Below are positions 44,014-57,144 of a DNA stretch of 64,000 nt, piece after piece; the stretch's first letter is position 1, and every line of letters begins with the position of its first letter. The notes below the pieces were generated by a model, which was given only the letters and a program-made list of their open reading frames with translations, did not search any database and was not told where the DNA came from. The position numbers were made by a program, and so were the translations under genes. Source of the stretch: an uncultured Chloroflexia bacterium (GTDB taxonomy: Bacteria > Chloroflexota > Limnocylindria > Limnocylindrales > CSP1-4); contig CAVYBU010000003.1 in the NCBI GenBank assembly GCA_963766735.1, positions 256,001-320,000 of the forward strand. Reading direction: 5' to 3'.

Positions 44014-44207
44014 GACCGTCCCCTGTGCTCCGCGGATCTCCTTCCGCGCCTGCAGGAAGGATGCGCCTGTTTGCCCTCGATGGCCAGCACCGAGCGCCCG
44101 AACCAGGCCCGGATACGCCCGATGGCACGACTCAGCGGCCGCCGACCGCGTATGAACCTCGTCGAAGCCGTTGCGCCAGCGTGCAAGGAACATGAGCGTG
44201 GTATCCT

Positions 44208-44224
44208 TCAACACACCATGTACA
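44208..44224 (+). promoter_or_regulatory. candidate CarH autoregulatory operator
   Basis: TCAACA (44208) and TGTACA (44219): TnnACA at 11-bp spacing, just after a TATCCT -10 and over the start codon. Confidence 0.4.
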
Positions 44225-45123
44225 CCATCAAAGAAGCGGCGGCACGGACCGGTGTCGGCGCACCCCTCATCCGAGCGTGGGAGCGGCGCTACGGCGTGGT
44301 CGAGCCCACCCGGACGGCCTCGGGCTACCGACTCTACGACGACAAGACGCTCAACATTCTCGTGGCGATGCGATCGATGGTCGAGGCCGGCTGGACAGCC
44401 TCGGAGGCCGCACGCGCGATCAAGGCCGGCGAGGTGGCGATCGAGGAGGCAACCGCAGTCCACGAGGCAGGCGGACCCGCCCGGGCGGAGTCCTCGCACC
44501 GCGCCCGCCTGATTGCAGACTTCGTCGCCGCCGCCCAATCGGCGTCGTCGACGGCGACAGAGGCCGCCCTCGACGAGATGCTCGTGTCGAGGTCGTTCGA
44601 GGCCGTGGCTGACGACCTCCTGCTTCCCGCGGCGGCCGCGCTCGGCGATGCCTGGGCGGCAGGTCGCATGAGCGTCGCCGCGGAGCACGCCGCGAGCGCC
44701 GCCGTCGCCCGACGCCTGTCGGCTGTCTTCCAGGCGGCCGGAGTCCCGTCCGGACCTGCTGTCGTCGTCGGCCTGCCGTCCGGATCGCGCCATGAGCTGG
44801 GGGCGTTCGCCTTCGCGGCCGTGCTTCGCCGGCGTGGTCTCAAGGTTCTCTACCTGGGGTCGGACGTGACCGTCGATGGCTGGGTCGATGCTGTCACGCG
44901 CACGCGTGCTCGCGCCGCCGTGATCGGTGTCGTCACCCCGGACGATCGCCCGGCCGCAGCCGCGGTCGTGGACGCTCTCCACGCGGCGGGGGTCGCCCTC
45001 ATCGCAGTGGGAGGGGACGCCGCCGCGCCGGACCCGGCGCCGGGGCATGGAGTCCTGGTGCTGCCGCCGCGCATCGTGGAGGCGGCCGAGGTCCTGGCAA
45101 GGGCGCTCGGTCGTCGCGGCTGA
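44218..45123 (+). CDS. MerR-family regulator with cobalamin-binding domain (CarH/LitR-like photoreceptor)
   Basis: YTIKEAA, IRAWERRYG..P.RT.SGYRLY, W-x9-EH (WAAGRMSVAAEH), RHELG, YLG. Confidence 0.9.
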   Translation: MYTIKEAAARTGVGAPLIRAWERRYGVVEPTRTASGYRLYDDKTLNILVAMRSMVEAGWTASEAARAIKAGEVAIEEATAVHEAGGPARAESSHRARLIADFVAAAQSASSTATEAALDEMLVSRSFEAVADDLLLPAAAALGDAWAAGRMSVAAEHAASAAVARRLSAVFQAAGVPSGPAVVVGLPSGSRHELGAFAFAAVLRRRGLKVLYLGSDVTVDGWVDAVTRTRARAAVIGVVTPDDRPAAAAVVDALHAAGVALIAVGGDAAAPDPAPGHGVLVLPPRIVEAAEVLARALGRRG

Positions 45124-45189
45124 CCCGCCGAGGATCGGAATCGGGACCGGCGGGCCGGATGCCCGCCGCCCGGGATGTCGAAGGTCCGG

Positions 45190-46167
45190 TCAGGCTGCGG
45201 GCGCCGGGTCGGCCTCCCCCGACAGTTCAACCACCTGGTCCCACAGCCGGCGCCGATCGCTGGCCGACAACCGCGTCGCCGGTAGCCGATCGAACGGCCG
45301 TGGCCGGCGATCGAGGAACAGCCCGCCGCTGGTGGATGCCGGGTTCGCCTGCGTGGCGAGCCACACGATCGTGTCCACGCCCTCCGCGGCTGTCCGCAGC
45401 AGCGGCCGCATCAGCCGGTAGAAGGCGGGGAGTTGATCCGCGAGGCCCGGGGTATCGGCCCAGCCCGGGTGCATCGCGGAGACCGAGATGCCGGCGGAAC
45501 GAAGCCTGCGAGCCCATTCGCGCACCAGCGCAACCTGGGCTCGCTTTGCCCGTGCGTACGCGCGAGGTCCGGAGTAGGGGACGGACCGGATCTGGAGGTC
45601 GTCCAGATCGAGACGCTGGGTGTACATGCCGCCCGACGTGACCGCGATGACCCGTGAGCCCGGCGTCCGGCGCAGGAGCGGCAGCAGCCCGGCGACCATC
45701 GCGAAGGGCCCGACGACGAGCACCGCGAGCGTCGCCTCGATGCCGTCCGGTCCATCGACCCGCTCGGGGTAGATCGCGCCGGCGTTGTCCACCACGATGT
45801 CGAGGCGCTCCTCCGTCTCCAGGACTCGCGCCGCGGCGGCCCGGACGGACGCGAGCGAGCCCATGTCCGCGACCACGACAGGAAACCGGTCCTCGCCGTG
45901 GGTGCGCACGAGCTCGTCGCGCAGACGCCCGAGCTTCTCCTCGCTGCGCCCGACGAGGACGATCCTCGCCCCGAGCGCGGCCAGCTGATCGGTCGTGGCA
46001 CGGCCCAGCCCTGAGGTCGGCCCGGTCACGAGGGCCGTGCGCCCGGTGAGAGCGCCCGCTGGCGGGGCATCCCATCCGAAGAGCCGGCTCCGGACCGATG
46101 GGCCAATTCGCGTGAAGCTCCCGATCCAGGTGATCTCGAGGGTCGTATCGATGAGACGCCTGATCAC
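45190..46167 (-). CDS. SDR family oxidoreductase (DHRS12/retinol dehydrogenase-like)
   Basis: TGPTSGLG, DNAG, SGGMY, YARAK, MHPGWADTPG; GTG overlaps the heliorhodopsin TGA. Confidence 0.9.
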   Translation of the reverse strand: MIRRLIDTTLEITWIGSFTRIGPSVRSRLFGWDAPPAGALTGRTALVTGPTSGLGRATTDQLAALGARIVLVGRSEEKLGRLRDELVRTHGEDRFPVVVADMGSLASVRAAAARVLETEERLDIVVDNAGAIYPERVDGPDGIEATLAVLVVGPFAMVAGLLPLLRRTPGSRVIAVTSGGMYTQRLDLDDLQIRSVPYSGPRAYARAKRAQVALVREWARRLRSAGISVSAMHPGWADTPGLADQLPAFYRLMRPLLRTAAEGVDTIVWLATQANPASTSGGLFLDRRPRPFDRLPATRLSASDRRRLWDQVVELSGEADPAPAA

Positions 46168-46961
46168 GGGGCCAGCGTCCCGGCGAAGACCTGCCAGGCG
46201 AGGATCGTCTTCGCGAACAGGCTCAGCAGCATGTACACGCGCTCGCCGTACAGGTAGTCGGCCCAGCGGCCGGTCTTCCGGTACTGGAGGATCATGTTGA
46301 AGGCGAAGACGTTGAAGGTGATGAACAGCGACACGAAGATCGCGATCACAAAGCCGGGGATCGGGGCGGCGCCGGGCTCGGTGGCGGCGGTCCAGAGCGC
46401 GATGGTGATCACGATCCAGGGCACGATGCCCGCGATGCAGCCAAAGATGTAGTGAGACCACTGCGTCTTGGTGCGGCCCTCGTTCGCGAGCTCCATGCTC
46501 CAGCCGAACAGGTTCATCGCAGCGTTGATGCCGAAGATCGCGATCAGCGCCCCGAGCTCCTGGATCCCCGACAACGTGGCGATGACAACGATCATCACGC
46601 TCGAGGAGAGCCCGTACTCGATCCAGCGGGCGGGGTTCATGCCGCGGGCCAGGCTGCGCTCGTACCAGCTGCGCGCGGGGAAGGCCACGGCGAAGTGGGC
46701 GATTGCGCTGAGGAAGAAGAACAGGGCGACGGCCGGCCCGATCGGGAGCTCGAACATCGCTCTCTGGGCGGGGACCAGCGTGTTCGTCGCGGTGTCGAAG
46801 CTCAGGAAGCTGCTCACGACGGGCGCCGTCACCACCGGGTCCTTGGCGAACGAGAGCGCGAGGATGATCACACCCTGGAGAGCGTGGAGTCCCGCCAGCG
46901 ACAGGTTCCAGCGGTGCAGGCTGCGCGCCTGCGGCTCCGCGATGGTGCCGGTGGATTGCAT
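46164..46961 (-). CDS. heR: heliorhodopsin
   Basis: WN...AGLHALQG, SAIAHF, NPARWIEYGLSS, YGERVY.LLSLFAK..LAW (retinal-binding SxxxK lysine); 7 TM. Confidence 0.95.
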   Translation of the reverse strand: MQSTGTIAEPQARSLHRWNLSLAGLHALQGVIILALSFAKDPVVTAPVVSSFLSFDTATNTLVPAQRAMFELPIGPAVALFFFLSAIAHFAVAFPARSWYERSLARGMNPARWIEYGLSSSVMIVVIATLSGIQELGALIAIFGINAAMNLFGWSMELANEGRTKTQWSHYIFGCIAGIVPWIVITIALWTAATEPGAAPIPGFVIAIFVSLFITFNVFAFNMILQYRKTGRWADYLYGERVYMLLSLFAKTILAWQVFAGTLAP

Positions 46962-47044
46962 CGTGTGTGTTCCTCTCAGGCTGATCGATCGCTCCCTCAC
47001 GCCCTTGACGTAGCGATCGGGCGTGGGGTACCTTGCAACTGACA

Positions 47045-47063
47045 TTGTACAAAGGCTCTACAA
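47045..47063. promoter_or_regulatory. candidate CarH operator in the divergent promoter region
   Basis: TGTACAA (47046) and TCTACAA (47057) at 11-bp spacing in an AT-richer patch. Confidence 0.55.
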
Positions 47064-47075
47064 GGAATGCAAGCC

Positions 47076-47522
47076 ATGGCAGTTCTCAGGGAACAGATCA
47101 GCACCACGCTCCCCCTCGACGAGTCGTTCGCCTTCATCGCGGACTTCGCCAACGCCGAGAAGTGGGACCCGGGTGTCGCGACATCGGAGCGGGTGAACCC
47201 CGGCCCGGTTGAGGTCGGCGCCCGCTACCGTCTGGGGATTCGCATGCGCGGCAAGGTCTCGCCCATGGATTACGAGATCACGACCTACGAGCCGCTGCGC
47301 CGCGTCGTCCTCACGGGAACGGGGTCCGGCGTGGATGCCATCGACGACATCCGGTTCGAAGCCACCGAGACAGGGACGCGGATCGACTACATTGCCGACA
47401 TCCGGCTCACGGGGCTGATGCGCCTCGCCGCCCCGTTCGCCGGCGGGGCATTGACGCGGTTGGTTCGCGCCGGGCGGGACGGCATGCAGCGCACGCTCGA
47501 CCAGCTCGCGGCCACAGCCTGA
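47076..47522 (+). CDS. SRPBCC/START-fold protein
   Basis: [28 protein letters not shown]. Confidence 0.88.
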
Positions 47523-47530
47523 GGAAGATC

Positions 47531-48847
47531 ATGAAGATCGCGATCGTCGGGTCGGGGGTCAGCGGACTCACGGCGGCCTGGGCGCTGAACCGAGACGGCC
47601 ACCGGGTCACCCTGTTCGAGCAGGACAGCGTGCCCGGGGGGCACGTGGCCACGGTGACCGTGGACGCCGCCGACGGCCCTGTGAACGTGGACACGGGCTT
47701 CATCGTCTACAACGAACGCACCTATCCTCGCTTCCTGGGGCTGCTGGCCGAGCTGGGCGTCGAGACGCAGCCCAGCGACATGTCGTTCGCCTCGGCGTGC
47801 GACGCCTGCGGCATCGCCTACAGCTCGCGCGGCCTCCGGGGCTTCTTCCCCGACCTGGCCACGCTCGCCCGGCCCTCGCAATGGCGGATGCTGAACGACA
47901 TCCGGCGCTTCTACGGGCACGCGCGCCAGATGCTCGACGCCCCCGGGCGAAGTCAGGCCACCCTCGGCGAGTGGCTGGACGAGCACCGGTACGGGCGCGG
48001 CTTCCGAGAGCACTTCATCGTGCCGATCACATCCGCGGTGTGGTCCACGGCGGCCGAGCGCGTGCTCGACTTTCCGGTGGACTACCTGCTGCACTTCCTC
48101 GACAACCACGGCCTGATCGGCTATGGCAACGCCCCCCAGTGGCGGGTGGTCACGGGCGGGTCGAAGGCATACGTGGAACGGCTCATCGCGACCCTGCCGA
48201 CGGGCGCCGTTCGAACCGGCAGCCCGGTCACCGAGGTGGTCCGCGACGCATCCGGGGTCTCGATCCGCACGCCGGGGAGGGACCCGGAGCGGTTCGACGC
48301 CGTCGTGATGGCCACGCACGCGGACGACGCGCTACGGCTCCTGGGCGACGCGGACGAGGTCGAGCGCGAGGTCCTCGGCAGCTTCGAGTACTCGCGCAAC
48401 CAGGTCGTCCTGCACACGGACCGCCGCCTGCTGCCGGCCAACCCCCGCGCGTGGGGGTCCTGGAACGTGCACACGCCAGACTGCCGGATGCCGGGCGACG
48501 CCCTGACGATGACGTACGACATGAACCGCCTGCAATCCATCCCGGGACCGGTCGAGTACCTCGTGTCGCTCAACCCCGGCGACAAGGTCGCCGACGAGCG
48601 CACCATCCTGGCGCGCACCTTCAGCCACCCGATGTACACGTTCCGGACCGTCGAGGCGCAGGGTGGCGTCGGCGACCTGCAGGGCCGCCGCCGGACGTGG
48701 TTCGCCGGCGCCCACCTGGGCTACGGCTTCCACGAGGATGGCTGCAGGTCCGGGTTCGAGGCCGCGGAGGCGATCGGGCGGTCCGCAGGGGCGATCGGCC
48801 AGCCCGAGCAGCAAGCCGGGCGCTCCATGGCGGAGCTCGCGTTGTGA
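47531..48847 (+). CDS. FAD-dependent oxidoreductase (COG2907, UfaD-like)
   Basis: [45 protein letters not shown]. Confidence 0.9.
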
Positions 48848-49614
48848 GGTCGCACCTGCTCGAGGGCAAGGTCCGCCACCGCCGGTCGCGCCCGTTCACA
48901 TATGGGATCGAGCACGATGTCTGGTACGCGGCGCTGGACCTCGCCGAGCTGGACGACGTGGACCGGGGACTGCGCCTGTTCGGGCGCAACCGCCGCGCGG
49001 TCACCGCGTTCCGCGACGCCGACCACCTGCCCGTCCCCGCCACCGACATCGCCGCGGATGTCCGGGCGCACCTCAGGGCCGAGGGCGAGGATCCGACGGG
49101 CTGGCGGATCATGCTGGTGACCAACCTGCGCGTGCTTGGGTACGTGTTCAACCCGGCCAGCTTCTTCCTCTGCCGGGACGGGGCCGGCATCCTGCGGGTC
49201 GTGGTGGTCGAGGTCCACAACACGTTCGGCGAGCGGCACCAGTACACGCTGCGTCCCGGCGACGGTGAGGTTGCGCCGGGCGGCCCGTTCACCGCCGGCA
49301 TGGACAAGGACTTCTTCGTGTCCCCGTTCATCACCATCGACGGCCGGTATTCGGTGCACGTCAGGGACGAGCCGCAAGCGCTCCGCCTGGCGATCAACCT
49401 CCGCCAGGACGGCGAGCCGCTGCTGAGCACCAGCCTGGTCATGCGCCGCCGCCGGCTGACGGATCGGAACCTGCTCCGGATGATGCTCCGGCACCCGCTC
49501 GTGACCCAGAAGACAATCGCGCTGATCCACTACCACGCCCTGCGGCTGTGGATCCGTGGCGCCCCGTTCTTCCGCCACGGGGAGGTCATGCGCGCACGGG
49601 AGTCGACGCGGTGA
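48844..49614 (+). CDS. DUF1365 family protein (UfaO-like)
   Basis: [43 protein letters not shown]. Confidence 0.92.
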
Positions 49615-50852
49615 GCGGCGGGATCCCTGCAGGTCGGACCAGCCTCCATCCGGGACGGATCATCGACGAGGCGGCACGTCGGGTCATGCTCGGCGCGGCC
49701 CGGCGGATCCGGGTGGGCCGCCTGGCGGTCGTGCTGCCGGACGGCTCCCGCCGCGTCTACGGGGACCGGACATCGCCCGATGCCGCCGAGATCCACGTCC
49801 ACGACACTTCAGCCGCGGCGCGGATGCTTCTGGGCGGCGACATCGGGGCCGGCGAGGCGTACATGGACGGGCTGTGGTCCAGTCCGGACCTGCCGGCGCT
49901 GCTCCGCCTGGCTGCGCTCAACCGGGAGGGCCTGGCGCTGCCGACGGGCTGGTGGCGCCTCCCGCTCAGGCTCCAGAAGACGCTCGCGCACCGGGCGCGG
50001 CGCAACACCCTCGACGGGAGCCGCCGCAACATCGAGGCCCACTACGACCTGGGCAACGACTTCTACCGCCTGTTCCTCGACGAGACCATGGCGTACTCCA
50101 GCGCTGTCTTTGCGTCGCCGGACCAGTCCCTCGCCGACGCCCAGCGCAACAAGTTCAGGGTCATGGCGGAGCGGGCCGGCCTCCGCGGCGGGGAGCACGT
50201 CCTTGAGATCGGCACCGGCTGGGGCGGCTTCGCCCTGTATGCCGCGGGCGAGCTGGGCTGCCGGGTCACGACGATCACGATCTCCCCGGCCCAGCACCAG
50301 CTGGCGACCGAACGGATCGCGGAGGCCGGGCTTGCCGATCGCGTCAGCGTGGAGCTGCGTGACTATCGCGACATCGACGGCACCTACGACGCGATCGTCT
50401 CCATCGAGATGCTGGAGGCCGTCGGCGCCGAGTACTACCCGACGTTCTTCGATGCCTGCGACCGTGCCCTGGTGCCGGGGGGCCGGCTGAGCCTCCAGGT
50501 GATCACGTTCCCGGACGTTGCCTATGAGCCCCAGCGGCGGAGCGCAAACTGGATCCAGACCTACATCTTCCCGGGCGGGCTCCTGCCGTCGCTGGCGGTC
50601 ATCGAGCGCTCGCTCCACGGGACGCGCCTGCTGATCCGGGACGTGGAGGACGTCGCGTCGAGCTACGTCCTCACGCTGCAGGCCTGGCGAGCCGCCTTCC
50701 TCGGGCAGCGGGACGCGGTCCGGGCAATGGGGTTCGACGAGCGCTTCATCCGGATGTGGGACTTCTACCTCGCGATCAGCGAAGCCGGCTTTGCGACCGG
50801 CGTGACCCAGGATCTCCAGATCGTGCTCCAGAAGGGCCGCGGGCTCGGCTGA
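49611..50852 (+). CDS. cyclopropane-fatty-acyl-phospholipid synthase family methyltransferase (UfaM-like)
   Basis: GEAYMDG.W, NIEAHYDLGNDFY, LEIGTGWG, SIEMLEAVG, YIFPGG. Confidence 0.93.
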   Translation: MSGGIPAGRTSLHPGRIIDEAARRVMLGAARRIRVGRLAVVLPDGSRRVYGDRTSPDAAEIHVHDTSAAARMLLGGDIGAGEAYMDGLWSSPDLPALLRLAALNREGLALPTGWWRLPLRLQKTLAHRARRNTLDGSRRNIEAHYDLGNDFYRLFLDETMAYSSAVFASPDQSLADAQRNKFRVMAERAGLRGGEHVLEIGTGWGGFALYAAGELGCRVTTITISPAQHQLATERIAEAGLADRVSVELRDYRDIDGTYDAIVSIEMLEAVGAEYYPTFFDACDRALVPGGRLSLQVITFPDVAYEPQRRSANWIQTYIFPGGLLPSLAVIERSLHGTRLLIRDVEDVASSYVLTLQAWRAAFLGQRDAVRAMGFDERFIRMWDFYLAISEAGFATGVTQDLQIVLQKGRGLG

Positions 50853-56247: not shown

Positions 56248-56799
56248 TCAGTCCTTGAACTTGAGGGCGCCTCCGTCAAAGGTGCTGACCATCGAGACCA
56301 TCAGGCCATCGTCGGTGATGTAGGCGTCCGAGCCCTGGTAGGGCTCAGCCAGGAACTCGGCATCGGCCTCCCACGTCACGGCCAGGGTGCCTCCGGTCAC
56401 CTGTCGCGAGATCTCCGTGAACGTGATCCCGCACAGCCCGCCGTCGTCGGGCGGCAGGACGAACCCGGCGAACAGCGCCGCAGTGTCTTCGCGGCCTGTG
56501 ACGACCGTTCCGCCCGGCAAGCGGATCTCGTAGCTGTCCGGGTACTGCTGCATCAGGCCCTTCCAGTCACAGCTGTTGAGGGCTTTGATGTGCTGGTCGA
56601 GCACAGCGTCCGGCGTCTTCTCACGCACCAGCTTGTCCGACAACTCCGCGGGATTGTTGGGGTTCGCGACCGTCATCGCCGTGTACTTGGCCGAGTTGGA
56701 GTTCCATCCCGGTACGGCCTTGCCGTTTCCGGCGTACGTCATCGCCGCGCCGGCGAGAAGCACGATGGTGACGAGCGCCACGAATCCGATCCTGCGCAT
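56248..56799 (-). CDS. secreted SnoaL/NTF2-like protein
   Basis: signal peptide, HIKALNSCDW..LM.QY, GSDAY; GGAGG RBS. Confidence 0.8.
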   Translation of the reverse strand: MRRIGFVALVTIVLLAGAAMTYAGNGKAVPGWNSNSAKYTAMTVANPNNPAELSDKLVREKTPDAVLDQHIKALNSCDWKGLMQQYPDSYEIRLPGGTVVTGREDTAALFAGFVLPPDDGGLCGITFTEISRQVTGGTLAVTWEADAEFLAEPYQGSDAYITDDGLMVSMVSTFDGGALKFKD

Positions 56800-57144
56800 G
56801 TCGCTTCCTCCATGGGGTGGCCAGGCGGGTCGGTCTCGCCAGTGGCTCGGCGCGGTCCCGGCGGCCGGGGTTTGGACCGCGTGTCATCGCCTCCCGCAGC
56901 GCGGTCAGCATGACAGGGTAGGTGCCCGTTGACAAGGATCACCGATTCTCGATTCTCGATTATTCGTGGTTCGCACGCCGGCGGCCGGGCTCCGGCCCGC
57001 TCTCTTGGCGAACCTGGGCGGCTCTCAACCTGGCGGGGCGGGCGGAGCGGGCTGCAGGCCCGTATCCGGACCGGGGGGCAGGACCAGCAGCGTGATCGTC
57101 GCCAGGATGAGCACGACCAGCAGGCCAATCGGCAACCGGTGGGC

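Follow-up and report, generated by a model that had tools for sequence, protein, structure and literature searches.

CarH is an adenosylcobalamin (AdoCbl) light-sensing repressor, usually of carotenoid genes. A gene for a regulator of this kind stands beside a heliorhodopsin (HeR) gene and a set of apparent lipid-modifying genes in a 64,000-nucleotide stretch of DNA from an uncultured Chloroflexia bacterium placed in the class Limnocylindria (contig CAVYBU010000003.1 of assembly GCA_963766735.1, positions 256,001 to 320,000). This whole stretch is hereafter called the window, and positions are given in its coordinates. The seven-gene locus at 44218-50852 is likely to represent a B12-dependent light regulon cassette of Limnocylindria, in which one CarH operator would shut both operons. 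Among the closest described systems, the CarH proteins of Thermus thermophilus, Bacillus megaterium and Myxococcus xanthus resemble the regulator found here in combining a MerR domain with a B12 module that carries a Wx9EH motif and an axial His, and in having tandem 11-bp repeat operators that overlap promoters, together with a probable autoregulatory site. The published operator consists of 11-bp repeats of the form nAnnTnnACAn, three or four in tandem, which overlap the promoter, and Wx9EH is a named motif of AdoCbl-type CarH (PMC8156234). The present locus differs from these systems in its predicted targets, which are HeR and an operon of the furan fatty acid (ufa) type rather than carotenoid genes. 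It also differs in its host, a member of Chloroflexota, and in its operator sites, each of which has two clear repeats with a differing position 2.

A second related system occurs in Pseudomonas putida and P. mendocina, where a class II LitR (PplR1/PmlR1) drives a light-induced phrB-SDR-FAD oxidoreductase-ufaM cluster, the light induction of ufaM reaching 25-33 fold (PMC9758184). As in the window, a regulator of the LitR/CarH family stands there beside genes for a short-chain dehydrogenase/reductase (SDR), an FAD oxidoreductase and a ufaM-type enzyme; the Pseudomonas cluster has genes for hypothetical proteins before ufaM. However, the Pseudomonas LitR is of class II, lacks the Rossmann B12 domain and has a LOV protein as its partner, whereas the regulator considered here is of the AdoCbl type. 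In addition, the Pseudomonas cluster includes phrB and no rhodopsin, whereas the present block contains no photolyase gene and places HeR next to SDR.

The enzymes of the locus find their counterparts in the furan fatty acid pathway. Rhodobacter sphaeroides has UfaO (RSP1090), a protein of the DUF1365 type, and UfaD (RSP1091), a desaturase that binds NAD and FAD and is akin to phytoene desaturases, while the gene order in Rhodopseudomonas palustris is ufaD-ufaO-ufaM (RPA2571-2570-2569) (PMC7380195). The window shares with UfaM-UfaD-UfaO (RSP2144, RSP1091, RSP1090; RPA2569-2571) all three domain families, arranged in the R. palustris order. The Rhodobacter furan fatty acid genes are under RpoE/ChrR control. 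There the pathway forms part of the singlet-oxygen response, whereas here a B12 photoreceptor is the apparent switch and an extra SRPBCC gene comes first in the operon.

Heliorhodopsins, for their part, reportedly form a partner system with photolyase. Comparable associations have been described between HeR and glutamine synthetase (PMC9529153) and between HeR and an ABC transporter (PMC11109279). The present locus resembles such systems in that HeR appears to be co-transcribed with a soluble enzyme; it differs in the level of control considered, HeR being viewed in these papers as a modulator that acts post-translationally, with helR transcription left unaddressed. In one survey, 'SDR' and 'MerR family transcriptional regulator' stand among ten frequent operon neighbours of HeR, listed without further interpretation (PMC11109279), and in another, which links HeR to oxidative-stress genes, its transcriptional control is said to remain 'unclear' (PMC8612252).

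Gene calls for 44218-50852, in a window of about 71% G+C, were based on codon-position G+C together with Pfam and NCBIfam profiles. They resolve seven genes into two compact back-to-back operons and a convergent carH. The carH gene (44218..45123, plus strand) encodes 301 aa with MerR_1, B12-binding_2 and B12-binding domains. On the minus strand lie HeR (46164..46961; 265 aa), which has an ATG start at 46961 and the ribosome-binding site GAGAGGAA upstream, and the SDR oxidoreductase gene (45190..46167; 325 aa; adh_short, E 2e-27), whose GTG start overlaps the TGA stop of HeR. A shared divergent control region of 114 bp (46962..47075) separates HeR from the lipid operon on the plus strand. The first gene of that operon encodes an SRPBCC protein of the Polyketide_cyc2 family (47076..47522; Pfam E 5e-17), its start being most likely at 47076, with an alternative at 47067. 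It is followed by genes for a UfaD-like NAD/FAD oxidoreductase (FADox; 47531..48847; 438 aa; Amino_oxidase / NAD_binding_8), a UfaO-like DUF1365 protein (48844..49614; PF07103, E 4e-72) and a CMAS-family S-adenosylmethionine-dependent methyltransferase that is UfaM-like by position (49611..50852; PF02353, E 8e-82). The last two genes have GTG starts overlapping the stops of FADox and DUF1365, respectively, so that GTGA start/stop overlaps occur at three junctions (HeR/SDR, FADox/DUF1365 and DUF1365/CMAS). This layout bears out the original prediction, which had been made from the sequence alone. It had described a CarH-like gene convergent on a HeR-SDR operon, and both coordinates and strands hold, the ends of carH and SDR being 66 bp apart. 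It had put the shared intergenic region at about 115 bp, against 114 bp as delimited here, and had named the series SRPBCC, FAD oxidoreductase, DUF1365 and Cfa-like methyltransferase, all four of which are matched by Pfam in that order. It had further noted that crt and photolyase genes are lacking from the block, which holds as well.

The assignment of the 44218-45123 product to the class I LitR/CarH (AdoCbl) type is supported by several sequence features. Pfam places MerR_1 at residues 2-69 (E 6e-14) and also detects B12-binding_2 (36.7 bits against a cut-off of 23, E 5e-9). The top PDB matches are T. thermophilus CarH/LitR (3whp and 5c8d), aligned over the full length with E ~4e-32. Residues W146-x9-E156-H157 align on the Wx9EH motif of Thermus, and H192, within S-R-H-E-L-G, aligns on E-R-H-E-I-G of Thermus CarH, a position that we take to be the lower axial His of the B12 module (xxHxxG loop). 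Equivalents of Wx9EH and H192 are kept in 31 of 32 CarH homologs, the one exception looking frameshifted. The earlier description of a CarH-like MerR/B12 regulator can therefore be sharpened to class I on the basis of domain order, Wx9EH and the axial His. Regarding cofactor supply, the same genome holds PduO-type adenosyltransferase and CobS genes and should thus be able to adenosylate and assemble cobamides.

The shared control region of the window was aligned with those of 21 cassette loci from relatives (22 sequences). Box 1, a 24-nt block next to the SRPBCC start, is conserved in all 22. In the window it is formed by a tandem pair of direct repeats of 11 bp each, ACATTGTACAA and AGGCTCTACAA (47042..47063, plus strand), which constitute a candidate CarH operator. 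A second box (Box 2), around TTGAC(A), is intact in many relatives; its remnant in the window, as the alignment reads by eye, would be the putative -35 element TTGACG of the SRPBCC-ufa operon (47003..47008, plus strand). A further candidate operator, again of two tandem 11-bp repeats (44204..44225, plus strand), lies over the carH start codon and a putative -10 element TATCCT (44202-44207). The window repeats fit the CarH consensus at T5 and at A8-C9-A10, that is, at four of the five specified positions. When Box 1 was represented by a position weight matrix (PWM) trained on 20 relatives, with the window and a near-twin excluded, the window Box 1 scored 30.2 bits and the runner-up in the 3.6-Mb genome 17.5 bits. 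Matches to this matrix at C6:4444 and C8:197181 (contig labels of the host genome) were judged to be due to chance, as they lack phased repeats. A generic operator pattern, TnnACA-N5-TnnACA, matches only twice in the window, at 47046-47062 (Box 1) and 44208-44224 (carH start), with 0.22 matches expected from shuffles. It matches nine times in the 3.6-Mb genome, both window sites included; five of the nine comprise two matches inside genes, one in an AT-rich stretch of contig C6 and two others. The C6 stretch (C6:4380-7000) stands out in an otherwise 71% G+C genome; up to 8.7 kb no gene is called there with confidence, and the DNA may be foreign or mis-binned.

The candidate operator in the shared region appears to be positioned to affect transcription in both directions. 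Read by eye, a HeR-ward promoter would have the form TTGCAT-17-TACAAT, with Box 1 overlapping its -10-like TACAAT, and an SRPBCC-ward promoter the form TTGACG-18-TACCTT, with Box 1 just downstream at about +1 to +24. Because Box 1 overlaps or abuts both putative promoters, one operator could shut both operons. Two other features of this region were set aside: the sole terminator-like hairpin in the scan falls within the start region of HeR and carries no meaning, and the idea that Box 1 contains an extended -10 was given up, since the TG directly adjoins the hexamer.

The link between CarH and HeR was further assessed in 80 HeR loci from public genomes (68-98% identity, 1.39 Mb), drawn from a scan that returned loci of the Chloroflexota type only, which overlap with the six same-genus loci described below, at least five of the latter being the same contigs. 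The full cassette is present in 21 of these loci; three have SDR/ufa-type genes near HeR without carH, five have a carH paralog near HeR without lipid genes, and 51 have neither within 10 kb. The operator pattern matches 86 times in the 80 loci, compared with about 3.3 matches expected from base composition, and its placement is nearly exclusive: 46 matches fall in the 300 bp upstream of HeR, 36 are no more than 150 bp from a carH start, and four lie elsewhere. In 16 of the 51 loci with unlinked HeR, strict repeats occur about 100-140 bp upstream of HeR, and in nine of these 16 the repeats are three in tandem, the middle one containing TTGACA, a Thermus-like layout. All 16 genomes with strict repeats encode a CarH homolog covering residues 1-296 at 50-55% identity, although the gene is split by frameshifts in G440, G448 and G452. 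A homolog is also found in five of the 35 genomes without strict repeats, and three of these five (L093, L109 and L110) gain repeats when up to one mismatch is allowed. At this threshold, carH is present in 19/19 repeat-bearing genomes with unlinked HeR versus 2/32 repeat-less ones, and no repeats lie upstream of HeR in any of the 30 carH-less genomes. Since the repeats sit upstream of HeR and at carH, and track CarH in unlinked loci, the prediction is that the AdoCbl photoreceptor controls HeR directly, as a member of its regulon. The earlier proposal that a B12 photoreceptor controls both HeR and lipid genes is thereby strengthened, CarH-type repeats being located in the shared promoter and on carH and tracking CarH across genomes.

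The arrangement itself is conserved, a point to which the original prediction had attached importance: the seven-gene cassette recurs within Chloroflexota relatives. All seven genes are found in the same order in 6/6 same-genus genomes holding an orthologous HeR (78-81% identity), as well as in the 21 cassette loci among the 80 HeR loci, and the arrangement is therefore no chance juxtaposition. The genes flanking the locus in the window are unrelated housekeeping genes (RNase PH, Ham1, MazG-type pyrophosphohydrolase, DEAD-box helicase and MttB by Pfam). As none of seven flanking-gene queries matched near the cassette in the six same-genus loci (L035-L040), the block evidently resides in different neighbourhoods. 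A complementary view is provided by DUF1365, which occurs in 44 of 401 Chloroflexota genomes in an even draw (a tally that includes G212 and G310, flagged as unpublished). Thirty-nine DUF1365 loci were examined, with four left out (G212, G310, G156 and G285, the last two being fragment matches only). All 12 loci from the class of the window hold the SRPBCC-FADox-DUF1365-CMAS core. SDR stands beside the core in ten of them, and the remaining two are cut by contig ends. Within 10 kb of these in-class loci, carH is found in 7/12 and HeR in 3/12; in two of those three (L152, a partial match, and L153), HeR is placed differently, on the downstream side of CMAS. In the 27 loci of other classes, only the three enzyme genes are present; none has HeR, and two have weak B12-domain matches.

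Beyond the cassette, carH or other repeat-bearing genes adjoin HeR in at least four arrangements, whose partner families are SRPBCC::NmrA-like, DUF4397-fasciclin and DUF378. In five of the repeat-bearing genomes with unlinked HeR, carH and a DUF4397(x3)-fasciclin operon point away from each other, the repeats lying in between, and an SRPBCC::NmrA-like fusion gene, also with repeats, lies about 7 kb away. In other loci, which likewise have repeats, HeR directly follows the SRPBCC::NmrA-like fusion or adjoins DUF4397 or DUF378 genes. The same few families thus recur together with carH, HeR and the repeats. In the host genome of the window, tandem CarH-type repeats are found at C25:120685-120760 in the promoter of an SRPBCC and NmrA-like gene pair divergent from a DinB_2 gene. 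At C30:67640-67730, DUF4397 and fasciclin-domain genes are preceded by a promoter-like TTGACA-17-TATTCT that is accompanied by CarH-type repeats. SRPBCC/NmrA-like and DUF4397-fasciclin genes are probably further CarH targets, judging from these sites, which are two of the nine pattern matches in the genome. Two side observations concern the same families. The homolog of the C25 pair in relatives is one 482-aa fusion gene standing ahead of HeR; in the host genome of the window it is split over two reading frames, through either a frameshift or an assembly error. In L041, L107 and L114, a small DUF378 membrane protein gene is situated between carH and HeR behind CarH-type repeats.

The HeR of the locus is a clear member of its family, with matches to PF18761 (E 2e-94) and to the NCBIfam HeR equivalog (320 bits against a cut-off of 100), as well as to the solved structures 6is6 (E 5e-64) and 6su3 (E 3e-55). 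Its transmembrane helix 7 Schiff-base Lys, K251, aligns on the Lys in the A-K motif of 6is6, and K251, E115, H26 and H89 are invariant among 23 sequences. In the adjoining SDR, the motifs TGxxxGxG, NAG and YxxxK are invariant among 19 sequences, and an N-terminal extension is conserved. The start/stop overlap between the two genes is retained in 14 of the 21 cassette loci. The HeR-SDR operon of the original prediction is upheld insofar as the GTGA overlap indicates translational coupling; its implied pairing of SDR with HeR is not, since SDR adjoins the ufa-type operon in loci without HeR and is therefore assigned to the lipid module. Nonetheless, the pair is a candidate for the model in which HeR binds its operon neighbour. 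On account of the translational coupling (14/21 loci) and of published HeR binding to operon neighbours, SDR is the first candidate partner by analogy; the full-text search had within its reach no published test of a HeR-SDR interaction. A second HeR of the same genome, with 52% identity, is found at C4:261729-262517, flanked by the trp operon on one side and a set of ABC/FtsX/HlyD transporter genes on the other, and the genome-wide pattern scan detected no CarH-type repeat near it.

The resemblance of the lipid operon to furan fatty acid genes, pointed out in the original prediction, becomes more specific on comparison with R. palustris: FADox-DUF1365-CMAS equals RPA2571-2570-2569 (ufaD-ufaO-ufaM) in domains and in gene order. 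The domain families of FADox fit UfaD as it is described in PMC7380195, a comparison made by description only. On the NCBIfam models of true cyclopropane fatty acid synthases, the CMAS protein stays short of the cut-offs (312 against 600; 259 against 400). The genome contains one copy each of carH, the UfaD-like type of FADox, DUF1365 and CMAS, and two of HeR. Taken at the level of families and gene order, the four-gene operon probably makes furan-type protective membrane lipids. A label of 'Rv0910 family toxin' for SRPBCC, suggested by NCBIfam at 50 bits against a cut-off of 100, was not adopted.

The remainder of the 3.6-Mb genome bears on the retinal supply and on the usual targets of CarH. 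Neither a phytoene synthase (SQS_PSY) nor an RPE65-type carotenoid oxygenase was found in searches of the whole 93.85%-complete genome, while a search for the Blh/BCD family was without information value, the control genomes giving no match either. Because neither enzyme was found, the retinal of HeR would be obtained from outside or by another route; likewise, with no phytoene synthase found, CarH has no detectable carotenoid genes to control here. The single photolyase gene found is on contig C8, outside the block, and no CarH-type repeat was detected upstream of it in the genome-wide pattern scan. Two metatranscriptome runs (shares 0.10 and 0.06) yielded small contigs that partly cover HeR, SRPBCC, FADox, DUF1365 and CMAS. 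These contigs, of which some are identical to the window, are uninformative on transcription, strand and light response. Elsewhere in the window, a c-di-GMP-II-GAG riboswitch aptamer (RF03169) occurs at 56819-56903 on the minus strand (70.1 bits against a gathering score of 40), upstream of a 183-aa open reading frame at 56248-56799 on the same strand.

A mechanism can be proposed for the cassette by analogy with characterised CarH proteins. In darkness, CarH carrying AdoCbl would bind Box 1, whose occupancy would block the promoters of both HeR-SDR and SRPBCC-ufaD-ufaO-CMAS, and it would also bind the repeats over its own start (44204-44225), resulting in autoregulation. Ultraviolet, blue or green light would photolyse AdoCbl and cause the CarH oligomer to fall apart, and the release of CarH would derepress three units, namely HeR-SDR, the lipid operon and carH. 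The products of the four-gene operon, together with SDR, would then modify phospholipid acyl chains, the likely route being methylation followed by desaturation and O2-dependent formation of a furan ring, which would yield singlet-oxygen-scavenging lipids. HeR would be made concurrently and in fixed proportion to SDR. A further possibility, which we regard as doubtful, is a two-tier light control in which CarH licenses transcription and HeR, once synthesized, serves as a retinal-based modulator embedded in the membrane, binding the coupled SDR or the Ufa-type enzymes and thereby adjusting lipid modification to the light flux.

A number of observations weigh against this interpretation, and rival explanations have been considered alongside them. 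In the regulator, the Rossmann B12-binding domain scores 28.7 bits, below the Pfam gathering cut-off of 32.1, and NCBIfam CarH (NF052513), although the best-scoring family, reaches 139 bits against an equivalog cut-off of 400. The low NCBIfam score, and the existence of CarA-type paralogs that bind the operator without B12 (PMC8156234), would suit a MerR/B12 protein that is no light sensor and instead reports B12 or redox, or represses without B12 in the manner of Myxococcus CarA. We consider this improbable, however, as both Wx9EH and the axial His are retained, in this protein as in 31/32 homologs, an adenosyltransferase gene is present, and HeR and the ufa-type operon are themselves related to light or photo-oxidation. 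In the operator, position A2 of the CarH consensus is unmatched in the window repeats, two clear repeats are present as against three in Thermus and four in Bacillus, and Box 2 is degenerate in the window. A simple sigma-70 scan of the control region returned no promoter with at least 9/12 matches and therefore calls neither of the promoters read by eye, whose positions remain putative for this reason. The repeats might accordingly be promoter elements or sites of another factor, the genes being neighbours by a photo-oxidative-stress theme only: Box 1 holds a -10-like TAtAAT and Box 2 TTGAC(A), and their conservation may be partly promoter-driven. Yet the same 11-bp-phased pattern extends over carH start codons (36 matches), the repeats upstream of unlinked HeR follow carH (19/19 versus 2/32), and the published CarH repeat is fitted at 4/5 specified positions, which makes such an explanation very improbable. 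The comparative evidence has its own limits. Two CarH-encoding genomes (L054 and L087) carry an unlinked HeR without repeats; the genomes are related, so that the co-occurrence counts, strong as they are, do not represent independent trials, and the repeat-bearing unlinked HeRs form one clade. Moreover, the repeat pattern was derived from these loci and the literature, which renders the count for the 21 full cassettes circular, and independent operator evidence is limited to the scans of the whole genome and to the sites at carH and at unlinked HeR genes.

The function of the lipid module and of SDR leaves more latitude than the regulation. Instead of furan fatty acids, the operon might make another acyl chain (methyl-branched, conjugated-diene or cyclopropane) or act on a non-fatty-acid lipid. 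Chloroflexota membrane lipids may be without the cis-vaccenate substrate. The CMAS protein, moreover, is placed as UfaM-like by family and position, and SRPBCC and SDR have no assigned Rhodobacter role. In addition, RSP1087-1089 of R. sphaeroides are dispensable for furan fatty acid synthesis, including RSP1089, which lies in the ufa operon itself (PMC7380195). Against a different product stand the translational coupling of UfaD-like and DUF1365 genes to the methyltransferase in the R. palustris order and the failure of the CMAS protein to reach the thresholds set for true cyclopropane fatty acid synthases; on balance, another lipid is somewhat unlikely. The SDR might also be a retinol/retinal dehydrogenase that feeds the HeR chromophore from scavenged retinoids, in which case HeR-SDR would merely neighbour the lipid operon. 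This would agree with the overlap of HeR stop and SDR start kept in 14/21 loci, with the failure to find either phytoene synthase or an RPE65-type oxygenase in the 93.85%-complete genome, and with the presence of protochlorophyllide reductases among the PDB matches of SDR (E ~1e-12). These, however, appear further down, the top matches being generic SDRs. SDR also stands next to the SRPBCC-ufa operon without HeR (10/12 in-class loci, the other two being cut by contig ends), and the Pseudomonas LitR-ufaM cluster has an SDR as well (PMC9758184), so that a retinal-forming SDR seems hardly likely.

The original prediction had regarded this wiring as not yet described, which holds in part. Control of a ufa-type cluster by a LitR-family regulator is known from Pseudomonas (PMC9758184). 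However, a full-text search, survey supplements excluded, found no literature joining heliorhodopsin with CarH, DUF1365, or cyclopropane or furan fatty acids. What appears to be new, and is supported by the sequence comparisons, is the occurrence of an AdoCbl-type regulator of this kind in Chloroflexota, HeR as its recurrent direct target, and the lack of detectable carotenoid genes.

Heliorhodopsins are widespread, yet their outputs are known in few cases. The locus and its relatives offer a testable answer, for one large lineage, to the question of how HeR transcription is controlled: through a predicted operator of about 22 bp, HeR would be a CarH target, as would an operon of the furan-fatty-acid type and a small number of envelope genes. 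A CarH regulon without detectable carotenoid genes would also widen the presumed range of targets of B12 photoreceptors. If the two-tier control were true, HeR would acquire both a defined transcriptional input and a defined cellular role in protecting membranes against photo-oxidation.

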